DNA of 54,949 bases from Eubacteriales bacterium (lineage in GTDB: Bacteria; Bacillota; Clostridia; Oscillospirales; CAG-272): positions 1 through 54,949 of the forward strand of contig JAZLDE010000106.1 of the NCBI GenBank assembly GCA_045614625.1. Direction: 5' to 3'. The notes beneath the pieces are model-generated. The model saw only the letters and a program-made list of their open reading frames with translations, searched no databases and was not told where the DNA came from. Below, one piece after another: positions 557 to 43,800 of the stretch. Numbering within the stretch: position 1 is the stretch's first letter; each line of letters begins with the position of its first letter. Position numbers and translations under genes: made by a program.

Positions 557-1735
557 TCAATGCTTCTCATCCTCGGCCAGATGGAGGACAGGCAACGCAG
601 CCTCGGGTCCCTCATCGCAAAGGTCACATTTAAGCTTGATCTCGGTCTCGTAGCTACCCAGCACGCGCACGCTTTCGCACACGGACTGAAGCGCGGACAG
701 CATCTTACGTCCGTTTTCGTCAGACAGATTGCCCTCGCCCTCGGCAAAGAAATAGTACGACCAGTTGCTCCGCTTGGTAGGGCGACTTTTGAGCGCTCTC
801 AAATTGAAGCCCGTTTGACCGATGGCGTCGATGGCACGGCTCAGCGCGCCCGCCTGATTGCGCACGGTGAAGAACAGCAGAAATCTTCCGTCTCCTGCCT
901 GAGGCTGGCGAGGTACGCGCGAGAACACGGCAAAGCGAGTGGTGTTGGTGTTATCCGCGCCGATGTTGGCAGCAATGACTTCAAGACCATACTGTTGTGC
1001 CGCCTCGCGCGTTCCGATGGCAGCGACCGTCTTGTCTCCCGCCTCGGCAACAGCCTTGGCCGCGGCGGCGGTGTTGACTGCCTCGCGGGTGATCCATCCG
1101 CCGCGTTGCAGGTAAGGCGCGCATTGCGAAGGCGCCTGCGGGTGGCTGACCACCTCGCGAAGTCCTGCCGTCGTGGCACCGGGGACACCAAGCAGATTTT
1201 GCTCAATCTCCAGCTCGTATATACCCGTAACGGACAGCGAACCGGCATAAGCCAGATCCAGCACCTGCGCGACGTCGCCGCCGATGCTGTTTTCAATGGG
1301 AAGCACAGCGCACTCGCACTCGCCCCTCTCCACCGCCTCGTACGCCGCGACAAAGTCCTTGCAGGGAACCAGATTGCCATCGGGGAAGATGGCACCTGCC
1401 GCCTGGGCGGCAAAGGCACCGGGCACACCGCTGTAGGCGACGTTCTCGCCAAGCAGTAAGCGATGCTGATAACGACGCGAGAGGGCCATGGTGGCTCTCA
1501 GCTGGCAGATATAATATTCACGCATGACCTCGTCTTCAATCAGCGCGGCGTTGCGGGCGATGACCTCGCGCTCGCGCACGGGATCAAGCACGGGCAAGCC
1601 GCGGCTGCGCTTATAGGCGGCGACGTCCTGGACGGCGCGCAGACGCTTACAAAACAGCTCTGCCATTTCGCGGTCGATGCGGTTGATCTCCTCGCGGGCG
1701 GAAATGAGGGTTTGGTCGGTGGTGGGGGTTGACAT
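557..1735 (-). CDS. pheA: bifunctional chorismate mutase / prephenate dehydratase with C-terminal ACT-like domain
   Basis: ORF 557..1777. It has an N-terminal chorismate-mutase helix (EEINRIDREMAELFCKRLRAVQDVAAYK), a PDT core (VAYSGVPGAFAAQAA, AVLPIENSIGG, NTTRFAVF) and an ACT-like end (LLFFTVRNQAGALSRAIDAIG). I moved the start to ATG 1735 (MSTPTT), which is preceded by TAAGGAGA. Confidence 0.85.
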   Translation of the reverse strand: MSTPTTDQTLISAREEINRIDREMAELFCKRLRAVQDVAAYKRSRGLPVLDPVREREVIARNAALIEDEVMREYYICQLRATMALSRRYQHRLLLGENVAYSGVPGAFAAQAAGAIFPDGNLVPCKDFVAAYEAVERGECECAVLPIENSIGGDVAQVLDLAYAGSLSVTGIYELEIEQNLLGVPGATTAGLREVVSHPQAPSQCAPYLQRGGWITREAVNTAAAAKAVAEAGDKTVAAIGTREAAQQYGLEVIAANIGADNTNTTRFAVFSRVPRQPQAGDGRFLLFFTVRNQAGALSRAIDAIGQTGFNLRALKSRPTKRSNWSYYFFAEGEGNLSDENGRKMLSALQSVCESVRVLGSYETEIKLKCDLCDEGPEAALPVLHLAEDEKH

Positions 1736-1772
1736 AGTAATCTCCTTATTTGGGATTTTTGCTGGATTTTTC

Positions 1773-2397
1773 AGCAACTACTTCTACGGACGCTCACACT
1801 GCACTTCGTGCGCGCTCGCGGTTTGTACTTTATGCCACTTCTTGGCACGCCCCAAGAAGTGGCGGAAGAAGGGCGCCAAGACGTTCCCTCTTGGATCTCC
1901 CTTATCTGTGCCGCTCTTCAAAGAGGGTTTGGGAGAACATATTTCGGCTTGCGCCGAAACGAGGCGAGTTTTATTCGCCCGTTAAACACGGGCGTTGCGC
2001 AGAAGCGCAAGCATAAAACTCCAAGACATAGCGTTTTTAAATGCTTTGCTCGCCATATAGCCACCACGAGCGGCAGATATGGAAAGCAAAAGTTGTTGCT
2101 TTCTTGTAGGGACGGGCGTCCTCGACCGTCCGAAAAAAGCAATTCTAACTTTGTGGAGCGTAATGGGTAGGGGAACGGAGTAAATCTGCGGAGCAGATTT
2201 ATGCCGAGCGTAAGCGAGGAGAGGGCCCCATGAGCTCGCGGGAGCTATTGCTTGGGCAGAGGCACGCCCTTCCCCACACGGACTTAGGAGAATTCTTCCC
2301 GTCCGTGCTCCTGTTTCTTTTCGGGAAAGTTCTTGGGGGGTGCGGGGGACTTCTTTCAAGAAGTCCCCCGCGCGTCCTCTCGTCCTCTCGTCCCCTC
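1773..2397. repeat. mosaic hairpin-rich intergenic repeat, locus A (between aroF and pheA)
   Basis: It shares blocks with loci B-E: head CTTCTACGGACGCTCACACTG at 1781, perfect hairpin 1834-1863, CCAAGACGTTCCCTCTTGGATCTCCC at 1876, GCCACCACGAGCGGCAG at 2060, GTAGGGACGGGCGTCC hairpin at 2106-2139, and hairpin GCGGGGGACTTCTTTCAAGAAGTCCCCCGC at 2341-2370. The track ORFs here are frame-broken between copies. Confidence 0.8.
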
Positions 2398-3435
2398 TTA
2401 CAGCACGTCGGCCATATCGAGGATAAGCTTTTCGGTCTTTTCCCAGCCGAGGCAGGGGTCGGTGATGGACTGACCGTGGCAGTAAGAGCCGTCGGCGGCG
2501 ATCTTCTGGGCACCATCGATCAGGTAGCTCTCGATCATCAGACCTTTGACCAGACGACGCAGTTCGTCGCTTTGGCGGCGGGAGTGCAGAACGTCCTTGG
2601 CGATACGGGGCTGTTCGAGGTATTTTTTGGCGGAATTTGCATGGTTGGTATCGACGATAACGGCAGGATTCTTCAGTCCCGTCTTGGCGTACAGTTCGGA
2701 CAGCTGGCACAGATCCTCGTAGTGGTAGTTGGAGCAGTTAGAGCCGTCGAATTTAGTGTAGCCGCGTAGAATGGCGTGGGCGTAGGGGTTGCCCTCGCTG
2801 ACGACCTCCCAGCCGCGGTACAGGAAGGTGTGCGACGTTTGAGCTGCGCGAATGGAGTTCATCATAACCATCAAATCGCCGCCCGTCGGGTTCTTCATAC
2901 CTGTGGGAATGTCCAGGCCACTCGCGGTCAAGCGGTGCTGCTGGTCCTCAACCGAGCGCGCACCAACGGCAACGTAGGACAAAAGATCGGACAGATAACG
3001 GTGGTTTTCAGGGTACAGCATCTCGTCCGCGCAGGAAAAGCCATAGTCGGCAAGCGCGGTGCGATGCAGCTCGCGAATGGAAACGATGCCCTTGAACATG
3101 TCCTCGTGAGCGGCAGGGTCGGGCTGATGTAGCATGCCCTTGTAGCCCTCGCCTGTCGTGCGGGGCTTGTTGGTGTAAATGCGAGGGATGATCAAAATTT
3201 TATCCTTCACCTGCTCCTGCACGCGTGCCAGGCGGCCAATATACTCCAGCACAGGCTCGCGGGCGTCGGCCGAGCAAGGGCCGATGACTAAAATAATCTT
3301 GTCCGATTCGCCACGAAAAATGCGGCGAATCTCCTTGTCACGCGCGTCCTTGACCTTGGCCATCGCGTCACTGACGGGGTATTCCTTCTTGACCTCCTGA
3401 GGAATGGGCAGTTTTCTCAAAAAATTCATATTCAT
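2398..3435 (-). CDS. aroF: 3-deoxy-7-phosphoheptulonate (DAHP) synthase, class I
   Basis: ORF 2398..3441. Motifs include LVIGPCSADAREPVLEY, IPRIYTNKPRTTGEGYKGM, VAVGARSVEDQQHR, GMKNPTGG and IVDTNHANS. The likely ATG is at 3435, with GGAGAA 7 nt upstream; the codon at 3441 is TTG. Confidence 0.85.
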   Translation of the reverse strand: MNMNFLRKLPIPQEVKKEYPVSDAMAKVKDARDKEIRRIFRGESDKIILVIGPCSADAREPVLEYIGRLARVQEQVKDKILIIPRIYTNKPRTTGEGYKGMLHQPDPAAHEDMFKGIVSIRELHRTALADYGFSCADEMLYPENHRYLSDLLSYVAVGARSVEDQQHRLTASGLDIPTGMKNPTGGDLMVMMNSIRAAQTSHTFLYRGWEVVSEGNPYAHAILRGYTKFDGSNCSNYHYEDLCQLSELYAKTGLKNPAVIVDTNHANSAKKYLEQPRIAKDVLHSRRQSDELRRLVKGLMIESYLIDGAQKIAADGSYCHGQSITDPCLGWEKTEKLILDMADVL

Positions 3436-3504
3436 AATCAATTTCTCCGGTTTTGTAGGCGGCTGTGCCGTCGGTCATTTTTTGTTTCGTAAAAGGTAAC
3501 GGTA

Positions 3505-4419
3505 TCAGCCGTTTTTATCAAACGCGCGGCGACGTTCGGTAGACAGGCGCATCATCTCGCGCATGGTCTCGCTGTCGCCCTTGGCCAGCGCGTCTCGCAT
3601 GGCACCAAATCGGTCGATGAAGGTGTCCATTTGATCAAGCAACGCATCGCGGTTGGACAAAAACAACTCGCTCCACATGACGTCGTTGATCTTGGCAATT
3701 CGGGTCAGATCGCGGAAGGAATCGCCCGTCAGTCTTGCCAGTCGGGCAAGACCGTCCGCCTCGTCCTCGCCACCGTCCGCACAGCACATCAGCGACACGG
3801 CAATGGCGTGGGTCAGCTGGGACAAATAGGCAATCATGCGATCGTGCTCCTCCACCGACAGCCGCGTGACACGGGCAAAGCCTAAAATGCGGCCGAGCTG
3901 CTCACAAAGAGCAATGGCCTCGGGCGTGTTTTTGTCGGTGGGAACGACCAGATAGTTGGCACCGCGGAACATATCGGGGGTGGCGGCGCGGTAAACGTCC
4001 AGCTTGCTGTTGCCAACCAGCTCGCGGCCTGCCATGGGGTGCGCCGAAATATACTCAACACCTCCCGGCAGCATAGCCTGCACCTGCTCAACCACGCAAC
4101 CCTTGACACCCGTGACGTCGGTCAGCACCGTGCCGGGGGTGATGAGGTGGCCGTGCTCGGCGATCCACTCGACCAATACGGCAGGGTACAAGCCAAAGAC
4201 GATGATGTCCGCCTGCGCGATCAGTGCGGCGTCGACCTGCGTGCTTCCCGCGGCGATCACACCGTCTTCAAGCGCGGCGTCGATGACCTCCTGCGAACGA
4301 GTGATACCAAACACGCGATAGCCCGTTTCGGACAGCGCGCGGGCGTATGCGGCACCGATCAAGCCCATGCCCACGATGAGCACGGTGCGATCGGGAATTA
4401 AATAGGGAAATTGTTTCAT
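3505..4419 (-). CDS. tyrA: prephenate dehydrogenase
   Basis: It has an N-terminal Rossmann motif VLIVGMGLIGAAYARAL and ISAHPMAGRE, with the overall layout of the TyrA family. RBS AAAAGGAGA precedes ATG 4419. Confidence 0.85.
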   Translation of the reverse strand: MKQFPYLIPDRTVLIVGMGLIGAAYARALSETGYRVFGITRSQEVIDAALEDGVIAAGSTQVDAALIAQADIIVFGLYPAVLVEWIAEHGHLITPGTVLTDVTGVKGCVVEQVQAMLPGGVEYISAHPMAGRELVGNSKLDVYRAATPDMFRGANYLVVPTDKNTPEAIALCEQLGRILGFARVTRLSVEEHDRMIAYLSQLTHAIAVSLMCCADGGEDEADGLARLARLTGDSFRDLTRIAKINDVMWSELFLSNRDALLDQMDTFIDRFGAMRDALAKGDSETMREMMRLSTERRRAFDKNG

Positions 4420-4445
4420 TTGACCATCTCCTTTTTTGCTTTAGT

Positions 4446-4480
4446 AAAAAAAGGCGGTCTTGCAATTGCAAAACCGCCTT
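4446..4480 (-). terminator. intrinsic terminator between the leader ORF and tyrA (attenuator candidate)
   Basis: The minus strand reads AAGGCGGTTTTGCAATTGCAAGACCGCCTTTTTTT. The stem is GGCGGT-TTGC / GCAA-ACCGCC with loop AATT and a T7 run. It ends about 25 nt before the tyrA RBS. Confidence 0.75.
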
Positions 4481-4525
4481 GATAAGCGTTTGATTTTCGA
4501 TGCCAATATCTGCACCGTTCCATCT

Positions 4526-4726
4526 TTATGCTGCAATTGCTTGTTTTCGTTGTCTTCTCAGATAATAAAAGGTAAAGCTATAAAAATAAAATGCAAAAAA
4601 GGATACCGCAAAGGCAGTATCCGAGTCGGCAGAGGTAGCGCGAGACAGGGCGGAGCGAGGGCATACGGACAAAGCCGAGGACATCGGCTGCTGTGCGCTG
4701 TTTCGTTCGTTCATGGCCTGCATCAT
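4526..4726 (-). CDS. putative Phe/Tyr-rich leader peptide (66 aa)
   Basis: RBS AAAAGGAGATACC precedes the ATG. The C-terminal part FAVSFFAFYFYSFTFYY has 7 Phe and 4 Tyr in 17 codons (4562-4612). It lies directly upstream of the terminator and the aromatic amino-acid genes. Confidence 0.55.
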   Translation of the reverse strand: MMQAMNERNSAQQPMSSALSVCPRSALSRATSADSDTAFAVSFFAFYFYSFTFYYLRRQRKQAIAA

Positions 4727-4776
4727 GGTATCTCCTTTTTGGAAGAATATTCATATCATTCTCCCAAGATAGCATT

Positions 4777-4805
4777 AGTATACACGATTTGTTTTCAAAT
4801 TTCAA
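4777..4805 (-). promoter_or_regulatory. sigma-70-type promoter for the leader/tyrA unit
   Basis: The minus strand reads TTGAAA (4800-4805), a 17-nt spacer, then TATACT (4777-4782), about 40 nt upstream of the leader RBS. Confidence 0.55.
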
Positions 4806-4854
4806 GGGCTATTGCAAAAAAAGTTGTGTTTTTTCAAATTTATTCGCCGTCAGC

Positions 4855-4899
4855 CAAAAAAAGCAACCGCGCAAAAGCCCTCTTGCCCTGCGCGGTTGC
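4855..4899 (-). terminator. intrinsic terminator of the surface-protein gene
   Basis: The minus strand has stem GCAACCGCGC...GCGCGGTTGC (10 bp) followed by TTTTTTT. Confidence 0.7.
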
Positions 4900-4912
4900 G
4901 ATTTATATTGCG

Positions 4913-6331
4913 TTATTTTTTCTTTTTACGAACCATCCATCCTGCCGCGGCGATGAGCGCCAGCATCGCAGGCGCGCCGCTGAAAAGAACGGCAAAGCAG
5001 CCATCGTCGCTCGGCGCTACGGGCACCGCAGGCGTTTGCGGCGTTTCTGGCTCGGTTGGATCATCCGTTTCCGGTGGAGGTGGATCAGAGATGATAAATA
5101 CACGATCTTCTGCCTCTTCTAAAATGGCGAGATACCCGTATTCACTCAGCACCTCTTTTTCAAGTCTCATCATACCGTCAACCGTCTCTCTGGCCGCAGT
5201 AGTAATATCGCAAGCCCTTTGCCAATTCTCCCAGGTCCAGTTGGACTCTTGCAAGAAATCCTTCAGCCAAAGCAGATCAGAAATCAAGCTCTCGTTTTCT
5301 TTCAGAATGTAATTGATTTCCTCGCAGTCAGCAATCACATTTTTGACGTTCGTAAACAACTTGTAGTAACCATTCGCTTTTAGCATAGATTGTTCATCCG
5401 CCGACAAAGCGTTCCACTCTGTCATGAGAGCATCATACTGCGCCTTTACAGCATCAAGATCAAACTCCTGCGCGGAGGTATCCTCACACACAAGGCTCAG
5501 CTGCTCGATCTTTCCAATCAGCTCGGCGTATTTTCCGCGCTCGGAAAGAGGCGCACATTCTTGTTTGCAAGCATAGCAGGTAAACGGCTCGTCAAACACG
5601 TAGGGCGGATGGGAATACTCCGAATGAAACGTCTCGTCGAGCTTCTTGTCACATTCGGTACAATATCTCCAGTGCTTATTCTCATCGTACTGCCACTCGC
5701 CCGGCGTGTGGGGATCAAAGGCGACCTGGCGGTCGGTCAGAACGAAATTGTCGAATTTCAAGACCCAATCCTGCCCGCAGTCGGTCTCATAGTCCCAATA
5801 AATTTGCAAAAAGTTGATATCGGAAACGTCAAAATTGCTGTCCAGCACTATCATGTCTTCAAGAAATATAACAACGTGATTCCAGCCTGCTCGGGGGCAT
5901 CCCTTGCGGATATCATAAAGAATATTTTTCCAGTCGTATCCTATTTTAGCCGGCAGCGTTTTCGGTCCTGACCCAATTTCCAAACGGCCGTAAGAAATGT
6001 TTTTCAGATCATCCAGCATGGCAAGATCCGAAATATACATTTCAAATTCCAACGCAAGCACACCCGTGGCATCCACTGCATCAAAATTGCGATAGCCCAG
6101 CACTAAGTTTGTTTTGCCGTTGAGATTGATACTGACGCATCCCTCGCCCTCTACTTGGTTTTCACGGTCTACTACAAAGCCGCCTGGATTCGTCCAATTC
6201 TCATCCGCATTCCACAGAGGAACGACCTTTGTGGGTTGCGCGGGCACGTGATCTGCCCCCGCAGGCACAAGGAGGCTCAAGAGAAGCACCGCGGTCATCA
6301 AAATAGAAGCTAATACTCGTTTCATTTTCAT
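4913..6331 (-). CDS. secreted/cell-surface protein of unknown function with a C-terminal TM anchor
   Basis: ORF 4913..6385; the start is probably MKMKRVLASILMTAVLLLSLLVPAGA (signal peptide) at 6331 or 6325, after AAAGGAGAGA. It contains a Cys-rich block (HWRYCTECDKK...FTCYACKQEC) and a Pro/Thr/Glu linker. The C-terminus is a hydrophobic helix plus RKKKK, with no LPXTG motif. Confidence 0.7.
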   Translation of the reverse strand: MKMKRVLASILMTAVLLLSLLVPAGADHVPAQPTKVVPLWNADENWTNPGGFVVDRENQVEGEGCVSINLNGKTNLVLGYRNFDAVDATGVLALEFEMYISDLAMLDDLKNISYGRLEIGSGPKTLPAKIGYDWKNILYDIRKGCPRAGWNHVVIFLEDMIVLDSNFDVSDINFLQIYWDYETDCGQDWVLKFDNFVLTDRQVAFDPHTPGEWQYDENKHWRYCTECDKKLDETFHSEYSHPPYVFDEPFTCYACKQECAPLSERGKYAELIGKIEQLSLVCEDTSAQEFDLDAVKAQYDALMTEWNALSADEQSMLKANGYYKLFTNVKNVIADCEEINYILKENESLISDLLWLKDFLQESNWTWENWQRACDITTAARETVDGMMRLEKEVLSEYGYLAILEEAEDRVFIISDPPPPETDDPTEPETPQTPAVPVAPSDDGCFAVLFSGAPAMLALIAAAGWMVRKKKK

Positions 6332-6484
6332 CTCTCCTTTGCCAAATTTTGATATTGGGAGGCTTTCCCAATGATAGTATAGCATAATAGCTAAAACGTG
6401 TCAACCCCCCCCGATTTTTCTGTAAAAAATGCTAATTTTTCTAAAAAGGCTATACGGGGTTCACTATATAAAACAGGAAAACTT

Positions 6485-9599: not shown

Positions 9600-10745
9600 A
9601 GGTTTGTAAAGGGGGAGAGGGGGGATTGGCTGAAATTTCAAGCTCCTTCTCCTTTTGACGCTCATACTGCGTGACTGCGTCACGCGCTGAGCTGTTCCGG
9701 TTTTCAATGCCGCTTCTTGGCACGCCCCAAGAAGCGGCGGAAGAAACGCGCCAAGACGTTCCCTCTTGGATCTCCCCTTTCGTGCCGCTCTTCAAAGAGA
9801 ACAGCGGAGAAAGACATCTACGCTCTTTCTACATCTCTCGCCACGCAGCCACCACGAGCGGCAGGCGAAGAAAGCAAAAGGCCTTGCGGGGTGCCAAGGG
9901 GTATTAGACCCCTTGGTTCGGTTCTTGGCTACTTCTTGGGGAATGCCAAGAAGTAGCATAAAATACTATCACCGAGCGCCCATTTCGCCAAGGCGAAATA
10001 CAGAAGTTTTGTTCGTCCGCTAAGCGCGGGCGTCATGCAAGCATGAACACAAAACTTCGCGCGCAGCAGGGCGAGGCTGTAGGAGAAGTCTTTGACTTTT
10101 CAAACTGCTTCTCCTTTTGACGCTCATACTGCGTGACTGCGTCACGCGCTGAGCTGTTTGATTTTGATGTTCATTCTTTGGCACGCGCCAAAGAATGAAC
10201 CAAGAAAGCGCGCCAAGGGGTCTAATACCCCTTGGATTCCCGCAATGCGAAAAGGTCGTTACGCTGTCGCTCCACTCATCTTTTCGCAAAAGATAGCATC
10301 TTCAGCGTTTGTGTTTGCAAGTTAAAGAAACTTGCAAACACGAAAGGCGCACGCAAGTGAAATAGCAAAAGCTTTTACTGTTTGTTACGCAACCTATGAA
10401 AACTAAATTTTATACAAAAACGATTTTGCCTCCTCTACCCGCCGCTCGTGGTAGCTATGTGACGAGAGTTGCAGAAAACGTTCTGATGTCTTTCTCGTCC
10501 TGCTTTTTGAAGAGCGACACGGAAAGGGAGGCTCGGAGGGAACGTCCGAGCTGGCAATGTTTGCGCCCGCGCGAAGCGCGATGTTCGCGTTCAGCGAACA
10601 AGCAAACTTGCGATTTCGGCTTGCCGAAATCTGTTTTCTTTCGTCCTTTCTTTGTTCAGCGACAAAGAAAGGACATATAATACCTGCACAGCGCACGCGC
10701 AAAACTGTGTGCGCGTCCGTAGAAGCAGTTGTAAAAAACAAAGCT
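9600..10745. repeat. mosaic hairpin-rich intergenic repeat, locus B (three elements: two direct, one inverted)
   Basis: The three elements are B1 at about 9640-10090, B2 at about 10100-10400 and B3 at about 10400-10740 (inverted). Heads lie at 9646 and 10108, with a reverse-complement head at 10711-10725. Perfect hairpins lie at 9709-9738, 9928-9957, 10169-10200 and 10643-10674. See findings. Confidence 0.85.
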
Positions 10746-22032: not shown

Positions 22033-22106
22033 TGGAGGCGCCACCCGGAATCGGACCGGGGATAGAGGTGTTGCAGACCTTTGCCTTACCGCTTGGCTAT
22101 GGCGCC
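22033..22106 (-). tRNA. tRNA-Cys (GCA)
   Basis: The minus strand reads GGCGCCATAGCCAAGCGGTAAGGCAAAGGTCTGCAACACCTCTATCCCCGGTCCGATTCCGGGTGGCGCCTCCA. It folds as a cloverleaf with anticodon loop CTGCAAC and an encoded CCA. Confidence 0.9.
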
Positions 22107-22123
22107 TTATTTAGAACAGAAGT

Positions 22124-22152
22124 ATTATACCACGCAAAGTCTCTTTTGTCAA
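22124..22152 (-). promoter_or_regulatory. consensus promoter of tRNA-Cys
   Basis: The minus strand reads TTGACA (22147-22152), a 17-nt spacer, then TATAAT (22124-22129), with TGG before the -10 box. Confidence 0.7.
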
Positions 22153-22229
22153 TGCTTTTTACAAAATTCTTTTTTCTTTTGCTGAAAGGTCGCTTCGTTA
22201 TCATTTTATGCGGTGAGTTGTGAAAGGTG

Positions 22230-22566
22230 AAAGATTGTGTAGATGCCGCTTCGCGGCATGGGGCAAAAAAGAACAGCAAAACCCTTAGTTGCGAGGGCTC
22301 GATAGGTTTGCCGCTGACGCGTCAAACCACGAGATTGCTTTTGCGGCTTGCGCCGAAAAAGCAATCTCTGACCCGCCCGCGCTTCGCGCGGATCGGGTCC
22401 GTATGCCCCGTAATCTGCGAGCGAGATGCCGCTTCGCGGCATGGGGCTCGAACCCAAAACTCGTCTCGCGAGACGAGTTTACAAAGAATATCTCGCGGGC
22501 TGGATACCCGCGCCTTGCGTGGCAAGGACGATATTCTTTCAGGCGGTTCTCGCCCCGTAAGACGCG
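22230..22566 (-). repeat. hairpin-rich spacer with a tRNA-Asp T-arm fragment, internal duplications and a three-way-junction module
   Basis: GATGCCGCTTCGCGGCATGGGGC occurs twice (22242 and 22424). ATGGGGCTCGAACCCA at 22441-22456 matches the tRNA-Asp T-arm. AAAAAAGAACAGCA occurs at 22265 and 22567. The three-way-junction module is at 22483-22539. Confidence 0.7.
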
Positions 22567-22605
22567 AAAAAAGAACAGCAGACCGATTGGTCTGCTGTTC
22601 TTTTT
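22567..22605 (-). terminator. terminator after tRNA-Gly
   Basis: AAAAAAGAACAGCAGACCGATTGGTCTGCTGTTCTTTTTT. Confidence 0.75.
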
Positions 22606-22681
22606 TGGAGCGGATTACGGGGCTCGAACCCGCCACCTTCGCCTTGGCAAGGCGACGCTCTACCAAATGAGCTAAATCCGC
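22606..22681 (-). tRNA. tRNA-Gly (GCC)
   Basis: The minus strand reads GCGGATTTAGCTCATTTGGTAGAGCGTCGCCTTGCCAAGGCGAAGGTGGCGGGTTCGAGCCCCGTAATCCGCTCCA, with anticodon loop TTGCCAA. Confidence 0.9.
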
Positions 22682-22687
22682 ATATAA

Positions 22688-22763
22688 TGGTGCCTCCGGT
22701 CGGAATCGAACCAACGACACGGGGATTTTCAGTCCCCTGCTCTACCAACTGAGCTACAGAGGC
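22688..22763 (-). tRNA. tRNA-Phe (GAA)
   Basis: The minus strand reads GCCTCTGTAGCTCAGTTGGTAGAGCAGGGGACTGAAAATCCCCGTGTCGTTGGTTCGATTCCGACCGGAGGCACCA. Confidence 0.9.
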
Positions 22764-22790
22764 ATCAGGGGAGTGATGGCTGTAAAAAAG

Positions 22791-22867
22791 TGGCGACCCG
22801 GATGGGGCTCGAACCCACGACCTCTAGCGTGACAGGCTAGCGCTCTAACCAACTGAGCTACCAGGCC
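22791..22867 (-). tRNA. tRNA-Asp (GTC)
   Basis: The minus strand reads GGCCTGGTAGCTCAGTTGGTTAGAGCGCTAGCCTGTCACGCTAGAGGTCGTGGGTTCGAGCCCCATCCGGGTCGCCA. Confidence 0.9.
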
Positions 22868-27502: not shown

Positions 27503-27680
27503 CCTTTGCTATCTTTTCCCATCCGGACTATACTCGCTCGCATCCGCGCGGGATTGCAGGCTTGCGAATTCGGCCCCGCCGAATTCTACCGTCGGTTCGG
27601 GAATTTCACCCGATCGGCTCCGTTTGTGGAGTTCGCAGACTATCACTGCCGGTATGGAATTTCACCAATTCCCAAAGTTA
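27503..27680 (-). promoter_or_regulatory. FMN (RFN) riboswitch
   Basis: The minus strand reads GGGAATTGGTGAAATTCCATACCGGCAGTGATAGTCTGCG...GAGCCGATCGGGTGAAATTCCCGAACCGACGGTAGAATTC...GTATAGTCCGGATGGGAAAAGA. The two GGTGAAATTCC arms and the closing AGTCCGGATGGGA box are RFN hallmarks. Confidence 0.85.
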
Positions 27681-27746
27681 TGTGTGACACTCCGCCGCGT
27701 GCGGCGGAGTGTCGGCAGGTCAATCGAATGACCTTGAAAATTAATT

Positions 27747-35789: not shown

Positions 35790-36235
35790 TAAAGTTCCTG
35801 CTGTTTCTTCTTTTGACGATCATACTGCCTTGCGCGTTAAAAAGAATAATTGTAACGGTTTCGCTGAACGCTGTGCAACTTCTCCTTGGGCCTCGCACAG
35901 CTTCGCGCGCTCGGTGTGCGGCCTTGGTGTTACTTCTTGTCTCGTGACAAGAAGTAACCAAGAAACACGCCAAGACGTTCCCTCTTGGATCTCCCTGCGA
36001 TTGCCGCTCTTCAAGGCAAATCAAGAGATAGACATAACCGTCTTTTGTGTCGTGCTTCAAGGTAGCCACCACGAGCGGCAGATATGGGAAGCGAAAAGTC
36101 TTGCGGGGTTCCAAGGGGTATTAGGCCCCTTGGTTCGTTTCTTGGCTACTTCTTGGGGAATACCAAGAAGTAGCATAAAATGCTTTTACCGAGCGCGCGA
36201 AGCTGGGCGAGGCTGTAGGAGAAGAAGCAAAAATT
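35790..36235. repeat. mosaic hairpin-rich intergenic repeat, locus D
   Basis: Head at 35807, perfect hairpins at 35929-35958 and 36145-36174, CCAAGACGTTCCCTCTTGG at 35970, and GCCACCACGAGCGGCAG at 36065. A 37-nt long-range inverted repeat pairs 35879-35915 with 36188-36224. Confidence 0.85.
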
Positions 36236-36571: not shown

Positions 36572-36648
36572 TGGTGCGGCGTAAGGGATTCGAACCCCCG
36601 ACCTTTTGGTTCGTAGCCAAACACTCTATCCAGCTGAGCTAACGCCAC
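36572..36648 (-). tRNA. tRNA-Arg (ACG)
   Basis: The minus strand reads GTGGCGTTAGCTCAGCTGGATAGAGTGTTTGGCTACGAACCAAAAGGTCGGGGGTTCGAATCCCTTACGCCGCACCA. Confidence 0.9.
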
Positions 36649-42789: not shown

Positions 42790-43800
42790 TATTTTTTGCA
42801 ACTACTCCTTGGGCCTCGCCCAGCTGCGCGCGCTCGGTGTACCGGCGTTTTGTGTTACTTCTTGCCGCGCGGCAAGAAGTAACCAAGAAACGCGCCCGGA
42901 CGTTCCCTCCGGGCCCTCCCTGCGATTGCCGCGCTACATAGAGCAACAAGAGAGATCACATATTACACTTAAATGCTGTGCTTCAAGTGTTGCCACCACG
43001 CGCGGCAGGCGAAGAAAGCGAGAGTGTTTTTGTTTAAATTTAGTTGGGCTGGGGTGCGTTGCAGATGGCAAAAGCTTTTGCCGTTTTGCTTACGTGCGAC
43101 TTCCGTGTTTGCTGCAATGTTTGCGCCCGCGCTTGCGCGATGTTCGCGTTTAGCGAACAAGCAAACTTGCGATTTCGGCTTGCCGAAATCTATTTTCTTT
43201 AACTTGCAAACGCAAAAGCTGAAGATGTAAACCTTCGCGCAAACATGAGCGGAGTGACAACGCAGCGACGTTTGCGCGTTGCGGGTATCCAAAGGGCATT
43301 AGGCCCTTTGGTTCCTTTTCTTTCGCCATTTCTTTGTGGAACGACAAAGAAATGGCATTCGTGCCGTACAGCGCGGCGCGTCAGCTGTACGCGCGTCCGT
43401 AAGAGAAGTCGTGGAATTTTTGGTTTTTCTCATCTCCTCCGCCTTGCAACCACGCGCGGCAGGCGAAGGAAGCAAAAGCATTTTTGTAAAAAAGTTAGTT
43501 GAACCGGGGTGCGTCGCAGATGGCAAAAACTTTTGCTGTGTCGCTTGCGTGCGACTTTTGTGTTTGCAAGTTTATTTAACTTGCAAACGCAAAGGCTGAA
43601 GATGCATCTTTTCGCGAAAAAATGAGTGGAGCGATAGCGAAACGACTTTTCGCGCTCGGGGGTCCCAAGGGGTATTAGACCCCTTGGTGCCTTTTCTTCG
43701 CCTATTCTTTGCGGCAAGGCAAAGAATAGGCACAAATCCGTACAGCGCACGCGCGGAGCTGTGTGCGCGTAAAGAGAAGAAGTCGTTTAAAAGCCAGCTA
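42790..43800. repeat. mosaic hairpin-rich intergenic repeat, locus E (about 1 kb, including a tandem pair of units)
   Basis: Left arm at 42802-42838 and perfect hairpins at 42854-42883, 43325-43356 and 43700-43731. Tandem units run 42992-43447 and 43448-43800. The 77-nt block at 43114-43190 is about 95% identical to 10554-10631. Confidence 0.85.

Follow-up and report, generated by a model that had tools for sequence, protein, structure and literature searches.

We report here that the DNA immediately upstream of tyrA in a contig of an Eubacteriales bacterium (JAZLDE010000106.1; the whole 54,949-nt stretch analysed is referred to as the window, and all coordinates are those of the window) very probably encodes a ribosome-mediated, or leader-peptide, transcription attenuator, which would sense Phe-tRNA and Tyr-tRNA and control tyrA-aroF and possibly also pheA. 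The leader and the aromatic genes all lie on the minus strand. Following a promoter we find an open reading frame (ORF) preceded by a Shine-Dalgarno (SD) sequence, within it a cluster of the cognate codons, and beyond it an intrinsic terminator together with an anti-terminator that excludes it, the features by which attenuators of this kind are recognised. At the level of sequence the parts, their conservation, their mutually exclusive pairings and their geometry are established, and their conservation and covariation across 14 further distinct leaders show them to be more than chance occurrences. Aromatic amino-acid operons of Firmicutes are usually described as being under the control of T-boxes, TRAP (trp RNA-binding attenuation protein) or repressors, and leader-peptide attenuation is thought to be rare in these bacteria because it requires ribosomes to track the polymerase closely.

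A Phe/Tyr-rich leader with two exclusive folds

The elements of the leader, from 5' to 3' of the transcript, are as follows.

4777-4805, minus strand: sigma-70-type promoter TTGAAA-17-TATACT, matching the consensus at 10 of 12 positions
4739-4767, minus strand: 5'-terminal hairpin H0, UUGGGAGAAU / AUUCUUCCAA, ending just 5' of the leader SD
4731-4738, minus strand: SD of the leader ORF, AAAGGAGA, with a 4-nt gap to the ATG
4526-4726, minus strand: leader ORF of 66 codons plus UAA, MMQAMNERNSAQQPMSSALSVCPRSALSRATSADSDTAFAVSFFAFYFYSFTFYYLRRQRKQAIAA, with the stop codon at 4528-4526
4601-4622, minus strand: hairpin H1, GGAUACUGC-CUUU-GCGGUAUCC, encoding SDTAFAVS, with U6 directly 3'
4562-4600, minus strand: regulatory run FFAFYFYSFTFYY, Phe or Tyr in 10 of 13 codons, all UUU or UAU
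4531-4540, minus strand: 5' strand of the anti-terminator, GCAAUUGCAG, the last four sense codons (AIAA)
4498-4517, minus strand: hairpin H2, CGGUGC / GCAUCG, inside the anti-terminator domain
4475-4488, minus strand: hairpin H3, CGCUU-AUCA-AGGCG, holding the base of the terminator 5' strand in the anti-terminator state
4462-4471, minus strand: 3' strand of the anti-terminator, UUGCAAUUGC, comprising the upper 5' stem of the terminator, its loop and the first 2 nt of its 3' stem
4446-4478, minus strand: intrinsic terminator T2 from the terminator scan, an 11-bp stem GGCGGUUUUGC / GCAAGACCGCC with loop AAUU and U7
4433-4428, minus strand: SD of tyrA, the tyrA ATG being at 4419

The first-pass annotation of this DNA had described the promoter, a well-placed ribosome-binding site and 66-codon ORF, an aromatic tail of 17 codons (4562-4612) that include 7 for Phe and 4 for Tyr, a strong terminator 45 nt past the leader stop and a complementarity between GCAATTGCA in the last leader codons and TGCAATTGC in that terminator, and all of these we could confirm, the complementarity extending from 9 to 10 bp. 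It placed the T-run about 25 nt before the tyrA ribosome-binding site, where we measure 12 nt from its end to the SD and 26 nt to the ATG, and it overlooked both H1 with its U-run inside the ORF and H0 (4767-4739). Transcription is predicted to start near 4770, which gives a leader transcript of about 350 nt, and AAAGGAG is found 6 nt 5' of the leader ATG.

The aromatic tail FAVSFFAFYFYSFTFYY (4612-4562) stands against a background of about 4% each for Phe and Tyr in the window proteome. One of its Phe codons lies apart in the H1 loop (4612-4610), and the first six bases of the regulatory run are at the same time the H1 U-tract. All 11 aromatic codons end in U, compared with a usage of 50% UUU and 41% UAU in the genes of the window. 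Short ORFs that follow an SD and contain amino-acid runs were sought throughout the window, and the one upstream of tyrA was the sole leader peptide recovered.

The T2 stem (GGCGGTTTTGC / GCAAGACCGCC, 4478-4453, followed by T7 at 4452-4446) has a hairpin energy of -18.8 kcal/mol. In the competing fold, 4540-4531 pairs with 4471-4462 over 10 bp and closes a three-way domain with H2 and H3, such that the whole 5' strand of T2 is occupied, and the stop codon lies directly 3' of the first of these strands. A standard ribosome footprint at the UAA covers 4540-4531, whereas a ribosome stalled within 4600-4562 leaves that strand free. When Phe and Tyr are plentiful, a ribosome would pass the Phe/Tyr codons to the UAA and mask 4540-4531 while T2 is being made, so that T2 would fold and transcription would end at 4452-4446. 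Under a shortage of charged tRNA-Phe or tRNA-Tyr the ribosome would instead stall within 4600-4562, the anti-terminator would form once its 3' strand emerges, and the polymerase would read on into tyrA-aroF. Such a switch had already been proposed in the first-pass annotation, and it gains support from the pairing, which is kept in all 15 leaders with compensatory change, and from a constant spacer of 7 codons, the masking itself being expected from standard footprints.

Conservation and covariation in related leaders

A TyrA-based scan of one genome per species yielded 80 loci, and the leader was common to the four closest of them (Oscillospiraceae and Clostridia metagenome-assembled genomes, with TyrA 94-79% identical), while in the remainder aroA abuts tyrA. 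Further leaders were obtained by scanning metagenomes for a conserved 20-mer, where two of 18 loci proved genuine (L084 and L086) and the other 16 matched by chance, and by searching proteins with the leader peptide and looking up contigs; the resulting alignment is A2. In total there are 15 distinct leaders, the window plus 14 from related Oscillospiraceae metagenomes, and in all 15 cases the leader immediately precedes tyrA, which is itself followed by aroF or aroF-pheA on every sufficiently long contig. Conservation in relatives had been named as a check of the first-pass proposal, and the ORF, its SD and the Phe/Tyr run are indeed kept upstream of tyrA in 14/14 related leaders, with a terminator that is kept and covaries.

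This alignment indicates that the ORF is read as codons. The leader frame is without a stop in 15/15 leaders, against 0-5 stops in the other two frames, and an SD-like GGAG, GAGG or GGGAG precedes every start codon. The distance from ATG to H1 is 104, 116 or 119 nt, always in a single reading frame, and indels of 3, 12 and 15 nt leave the frame intact; the L004 clade carries an additional 12-nt in-frame insertion. The related leaders encode 66-75 amino acids, and apart from the motifs described below the N-terminal half of the peptide is poorly conserved. Among the 11 aromatic codons of the 13 main-clade leaders there are seven variable sites (five UUU<->UAU and two UAU<->UAC), and at none of them is the aromatic residue lost, although by chance only about 2/9 of single-base changes would keep one. 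Because five of five changes at the second codon position would be improbable if selection acted on A/U composition alone, we conclude from the alignment that it is the identity of the Phe/Tyr codons that is under selection.

The terminator and anti-terminator are conserved as pairings. All T2 pairs form in 15/15 leaders, the basal G-C being replaced by A-U in five, and likewise all 10 anti-terminator pairs form in 15/15, with one compensatory and three one-sided, pair-preserving (G-U-compatible) changes. In the compensatory case (L004) the leader strand changes from GCAAUUGCA to GCAAAUGCA and the terminator loop from UGCAAUUGC to UGCAUUUGC. A U-A pair becomes A-U in L004 or G-U in L084 and L115, the neighbouring A-U becomes G-U in L003 and L099, and a change from G-U to A-U is also seen; the anti-terminator pairing of L115 is the same as that of the window. 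As a control, sliding the partner strand by 1-3 columns left only 13-49% of cells able to pair. The codons that take part read AIAA, AVAG, ANAR or ASAR across leaders, and because they vary in this way the conserved element at the last four codons is the RNA pairing and not the peptide. Moreover, the 7 codons (21 nt) between the last aromatic codon and the anti-terminator strand are kept in both clades, although their sequences are unrelated (LRRQRKQ and TDGPIRV). H3 is more variable, with CGCU/AGCG in relatives and, by eye, (G/A)CCG-AUGG-CGGU in the L004 clade, where the predicted fold is a small 3-bp hairpin.

More distant peptides were sought with a profile search and an exhaustive hidden Markov model (HMM) search of 1.84 billion representative proteins, the latter giving 16 matches at E <= 0.001, almost all of them short leader-like peptides. 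For two of the distant peptides, P0025 (54 amino acids) and P0026 (83 amino acids), the next genes are pheA-aroB-aroC(-aroE/K); for P0023 and P0018 the gene downstream is tyrA. Wherever the context of a family member is readable, a tyrA or pheA operon follows, the hosts being uncultured Clostridia of gut and rumen. In the distant members the terminator and anti-terminator sequences differ and the layout is kept. L111 has a different terminator (AGCGUUUUCGC / GCGGAAACGCU), the 5' strand and loop of which pair over their whole length with GCCGAAAAGU.AAAAC.GCUG from the 3' end of the ORF, and L112 and L114 follow the same pairing logic with other sequences again. Phe and Tyr together account for 9-14 of the first 20 residues past V-S in 20/22 peptides, compared with 0-4 in the upstream part, and both amino acids are always present. 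Trp is absent from all 22, and R, D, N or G frequently interrupt the Phe/Tyr runs.

Two unusually long peptides, P0053 and P0054 (110-113 amino acids), keep the N-terminal motifs and have a long aliphatic hydrophobic tail in place of the Phe/Tyr run; possibly these are derived members of the family, or read-through ORFs called in error.

These family data also bear on whether the ORF might instead encode a small protein with a function of its own, such as a single-pass peptide of the membrane whose helix is rich in aromatic residues, with 4478-4446 as its own leaky terminator and a structural role for Phe and Tyr. Conservation does extend beyond the Phe/Tyr run, with S-[V/L]-C and D-T-x-x-x-V-S-F-F-A nearly invariant, the segment AVSFFAFYFYSFTFYYL is hydrophobic and of roughly membrane-helix length, gene callers label the leader peptide a hypothetical protein, and P0053 and P0054 have hydrophobic tails. 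Nonetheless we regard this explanation as very improbable. All members with readable context stand immediately upstream of aromatic amino-acid operons and none has a recorded Pfam match, runs containing R, D, N and G or stretches of YYYYY fit a membrane helix poorly, and the Phe codons of the main clade change only to Tyr and never to Leu, Ile or Val. Non-conservative replacements (I, V, N, S) are seen in the final four codons with the terminator pairing kept, and a separate tyrA promoter would have no room in the 12 nt between the T-run and the SD.

At the 5' end of the leader, a 15-nt block surrounding the -10 box, AATCGTGTATACTAA (4789-4775), shows no variation among the 15 aligned leaders and recurs unchanged in L114 and L115, unlike the -35 region and the promoter spacer, which vary. 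This exceeds what a -10 box needs, and the block could harbour an extra operator. H0, which begins about 3 nt from the predicted transcription start, folds in 13/15 leaders with compensatory changes (variants UGAAGGAA/UUCCUUCA and UGAAAGAA/UUCUUUCA) and is deleted in the L004/L084 clade; it is likely to be a stabiliser of the mRNA 5' end.

Kinetic control and the hairpin within the ORF

Folding calculations set limits on how the switch could operate. Transcripts ending just past the T2 loop fold into the anti-terminator in 5/5 sequences tested, whereas full-length RNA at equilibrium always folds into the terminator, and the folding check suggested in the first-pass annotation thus yields the alternative structure for truncated transcripts and the terminator for the finished leader. 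Switching at equilibrium is ruled out, the terminator having a probability P of about 1.0 with ribosome masks placed at each Phe/Tyr codon. Because equilibrium folding always yields the terminator, the switch must be kinetic and co-transcriptional, and kinetic control is supported by the truncated-transcript folds and the barrier estimate. The anti-terminator state has an energy of -25 to -31 kcal/mol, against -28.5 to -32 for the terminator state, a gap of 1-4 kcal/mol, and the barrier between them is about 16-20 kcal/mol by a direct-path estimate, which suggests that the anti-terminator, once formed, should outlast the passage of the polymerase.

What would hold the polymerase back for the ribosome, or silence transcripts that are not translated, may be found in H1. 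This hairpin has 9 bp and an energy of -12.4 kcal/mol, spans 4622-4595 together with its U-run, and was flagged as terminator-like by the terminator scan, its U6 being the first Phe-Phe codons. All nine pairs form in 15/15 leaders, pair 7 appearing as U-G, U-A or C-G, and the loop codon varies between F, Y and P. Distant members have GAC/GUG in the arms where the window has GAU/GUA, and the arms of L111 (GACAC/GUGUC against GAUAC/GUAUC in the window) differ by compensatory changes at synonymous sites. H1 and its U-tract, which together encode D-T-x-x-x-V-S-F-F-A, form the best-conserved block of the whole family, and H1 probably serves as a pause or translation checkpoint. Most likely it would make the polymerase wait for the ribosome, which would melt it on arrival; alternatively it would terminate untranslated transcripts, and in either case ribosome and polymerase would be synchronised. 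Its T-rich tract presumably resembles NusG-dependent pause motifs. Polymerase pausing has been found to be required for ribosome-mediated attenuation in B. subtilis (PMC6851288).

The classical means of silencing an untranslated leader would be a 1:2 pairing (anti-antiterminator). This duplex has 10 bp in L004/L084 and 8 bp in L114, where UUUUGCGU pairs clearly with GCGCAAAA. In the window clade it does not rise above shuffled sequences (z of about 0), and because no convincing 1:2 pairing is present there, untranslated transcripts of this clade would be read through by default. H1 and its U-tract would probably supply this missing default control.

Two further pairings were considered and set aside. 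A pairing of the conserved block GUCGGUUUUGUCC with the T2 3' strand was, by eye, not conserved in the window or L004. The U-tract after H1, CCUUUUUUGC (4603-4594), is perfectly complementary to GCAAAAAAGG (4437-4428) over the tyrA SD, and the pairing is present in the minimum-free-energy fold; we judge this potential masking of the SD to be a coincidence, since the A-run of GCAAAAAAGG is 4-7 long in relatives and the U-run shows no matching changes.

Several observations weigh against the attenuator as we propose it. The preference of full-length RNA for the terminator persists whichever Phe/Tyr codon is masked, and the 1:2 structure is the null result just given for the window clade. Of the two controls of the anti-terminator, that by shuffling is modest, with 7/500 shuffles reaching the observed score, and the covariation amounts to a few independent events in perhaps 4-5 lineages, which is supportive and not statistically overwhelming. 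At 66-75 codons the leader is long. Transcription-translation coupling is weak in at least some Firmicutes (B. subtilis). Finally, the conserved peptide motifs (S-V/L-C and D-T...V-S-F-F-A) exceed what a pure codon counter would need. The S-[V/L/A]-C motif (S20-V21-C22 in the window, 4669-4661, minus strand) occurs in about 20/22 leader peptides, some of them very distant, and it is together with D-T-x-x-x-V-S-F-F-A that distant peptides encode their shared residues by different synonymous codons. Part of this conservation is an ascertainment effect of word-based searching, and part is accounted for by the H1 arms.

The motifs raise the question of whether the attenuator contains a nascent-peptide sensor, in which S-V-C ... 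D-T-A-x-A-V-S-F-F-A-F would arrest the ribosome from the exit tunnel, perhaps together with free Phe or Tyr in the manner of TnaC with Trp, so that tRNA charging would not be the sole signal, or whether H1 with its U-tract is itself a true terminator inside the ORF that yields only to a translating ribosome, giving two checkpoints. The differing synonymous codons of distant members point in the first direction, and the terminator score and exceptional conservation of H1 with U6, combined with the weakness of 1:2 pairing in the window clade as a means of silencing untranslated transcripts, point in the second. Even so, we hold this variant to be quite improbable: the motif conservation is partly circular, given that the searches depend on words of five residues in common (for instance VSFFA), the arms of H1 consist of the D-T and V-S codons, for which an RNA constraint could suffice, and the distance from S-x-C to VSFF ranges from 13 to 28 residues. 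A free amino acid that induces its own biosynthetic operon would, moreover, give regulation of the wrong sign.

A wider, and decidedly speculative, idea, which we would rate as possible but unlikely, is that the family is a two-checkpoint attenuator for bacteria whose ribosomes normally lag behind RNA polymerase. H1 with its U-tract would then terminate transcription inside the ORF, or hold it in a long pause, unless relieved by a translating ribosome, coupling would be guaranteed just ahead of the Phe/Tyr codons, and the S-V/L-C and DT..VSFFAF motifs might tune stalling as a nascent-chain element.

Known systems and the surrounding operon

An alternative would be an RNA switch that binds a ligand, a tRNA or a protein (in the form of a riboswitch not yet recognised, or of a T-box-like or TRAP/PyrR-like element) and acts through the same terminator and anti-terminator, with the ORF incidental. 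In its favour, Firmicutes usually control their aromatic genes by T-boxes and TRAP, the leader folds better than shuffled sequence (z = -3.9), and the three-way junction of P1, H2 and H3 superficially resembles an aptamer. With cmscan, the whole window gave only tRNAs and a flavin mononucleotide (FMN) riboswitch at the gathering threshold, all of them away from the leader. The absence of a T-box core reported in the first-pass annotation was borne out, as T-box (RF00230) had no match in the window at the gathering threshold or in 4300-4950 at E <= 10, and Phe_leader (RF01859) had none in 4300-4950 at E <= 10. All matches in that interval were far below threshold and attributable to chance, those of leader type being L20_leader (23.6 bits against 58.7) and Leu_leader (16.4 against 50), and the L111 leader likewise had only sub-threshold chance matches to Rfam. 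A T-box was also missing within 3 kb in 20 relatives with the aroA-tyrA arrangement, which is uninformative. A riboswitch aptamer is rejected, H2 and the junction varying freely in sequence and length between clades: a hairpin at the H2 position is predicted in all of them with unrelated sequences (e.g. CGGUG/CACCG and UUCCGC/GCGGAA), and there is therefore no conserved ligand pocket. A TRAP-like array of about 9-11 (G/U)AG triplets is rejected as well, the leader having 5 where shuffled sequences have 10.5 +/- 2.8, a depletion. An incidental ORF would leave the preserved reading frame, the SD, the Phe/Tyr-only substitutions, the stop placement and the 7-codon spacer unexplained, and we find an RNA switch of this kind extremely improbable.

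The attenuator that we favour is matched in its logic by enterobacterial pheL-pheA (PMC3082878), where a run of Phe codons in a leader peptide precedes a gene of the Phe pathway and an intrinsic terminator competes with an anti-terminator, the finished leader favouring termination. The likeness to pheL drawn in the first-pass annotation stands for this logic and not for descent, as cmscan finds no sequence or structure homology at E <= 10. Moreover, pheL has about 15 amino acids against 66-75 here and Phe codons alone against mixed Phe and Tyr, tyrA is the first gene here, and the present leader has H1 and a U-tract in the ORF, a 1:2 pairing that is weak or absent in the window clade, and a host among the Clostridia instead of a gammaproteobacterium. 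The T-box (RF00230) likewise responds to tRNA charging and sets a terminator against an anti-terminator in a 5' leader, but binds uncharged tRNA directly and does not need translation, and its Stem I, specifier and T-box sequence are absent here.

The first-pass view that a leader-peptide attenuator would be unusual in this phylum is fair but overstated, considering that such systems have been predicted or shown in Firmicutes or related bacteria (PMC9413887, PMC8632094, PMC4191407). The uORFC-13-1 motif of Acholeplasma and environmental sequences comprises a candidate upstream ORF before aroF with 'at least one' Phe codon (PMC8632094). Going by its published description, with which the leader was compared, it is similarly Firmicutes-related and has a promoter, ribosome-binding site, Phe-encoding U-run and terminator before a shikimate-pathway gene, as well as an additional conserved base-paired element; the Rfam scan gave no match to it in the window. 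The predicted His leader-peptide attenuators of the B. cereus group, Peptostreptococcaceae and Erysipelotrichales (PMC9413887) resemble the present family in being lineage-restricted, in serving amino-acid biosynthesis in Firmicutes without the usual T-box or repressor and in resting on comparative inference, and differ in having 3-5 His codons in short peptides with no sequence relation. Long leader ORFs in Firmicutes, with a terminator and alternative structures overlapping the coding sequence, are found in bmrB-bmrCD of B. subtilis, a ribosome-mediated attenuator with a BmrB leader of 53 amino acids (PMC4191407), and in the tlrB/yxjB leader, which involves NusG-dependent pausing (PMC6851288). 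In both, translation of the leader is required and polymerase pausing buys the ribosome time; they differ in sensing ribosome-targeting antibiotics and not amino-acid supply, and in bmrB the regulated terminator is inside the ORF, whereas T2 lies 45 nt past the stop codon.

The family is an undescribed, lineage-restricted set of Phe/Tyr leader peptides with some unexplained extras, most likely working by what is in itself a classical mechanism. It would add an attenuator responsive to Phe plus Tyr to the multivalent ones already known, such as those of thr and ilv, and it gives annotators a rule for a recurrent 'hypothetical protein'. H1 with its U-tract within the ORF offers a compact natural system in which to study transcription-translation synchrony outside Proteobacteria.

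The genes around the leader are the following.

4913-6385, minus strand: preceding gene (6385-4913), with its own terminator at about 4892-4850, just 5' of the leader promoter
3505-4433, minus strand: tyrA (prephenate dehydrogenase; Pfam PDH_N and PDH_C), the first regulated gene, coordinates including its SD
2398-3441, minus strand: aroF (3-deoxy-D-arabino-heptulosonate 7-phosphate synthase; Pfam DAHP_synth_1), the second regulated gene
557-1777, minus strand: pheA (chorismate mutase, prephenate dehydratase and ACT domain; Pfam CM_2, PDT and ACT)

The gene order leader-tyrA-aroF is common to the window and its relatives. Possibly pheA shares a transcript with tyrA-aroF; the spacer between aroF and pheA is 620 nt in the window (1778-2397) against 178-350 nt in relatives. 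This spacer holds pieces of a short dispersed intergenic repeat with 72-95% identity to other copies in the window, partial copies of which lie at 9657-9799, 9837-9880, 9928-9982, 35905-36014, 36063-36099, 36145-36179 and 42849-42943. It looks like an insertion of the REP (repetitive extragenic palindromic) or MITE (miniature inverted-repeat transposable element) type, and it may uncouple pheA from the attenuated transcript. Elsewhere in the window, the FMN riboswitch lies at 27563-27682 (minus strand) and barely exceeds the Rfam gathering threshold (67.0 bits against 66.2), and of the tRNA genes, on the minus strand, four are clustered in 22036-22867 and one more is at 36575-36648.

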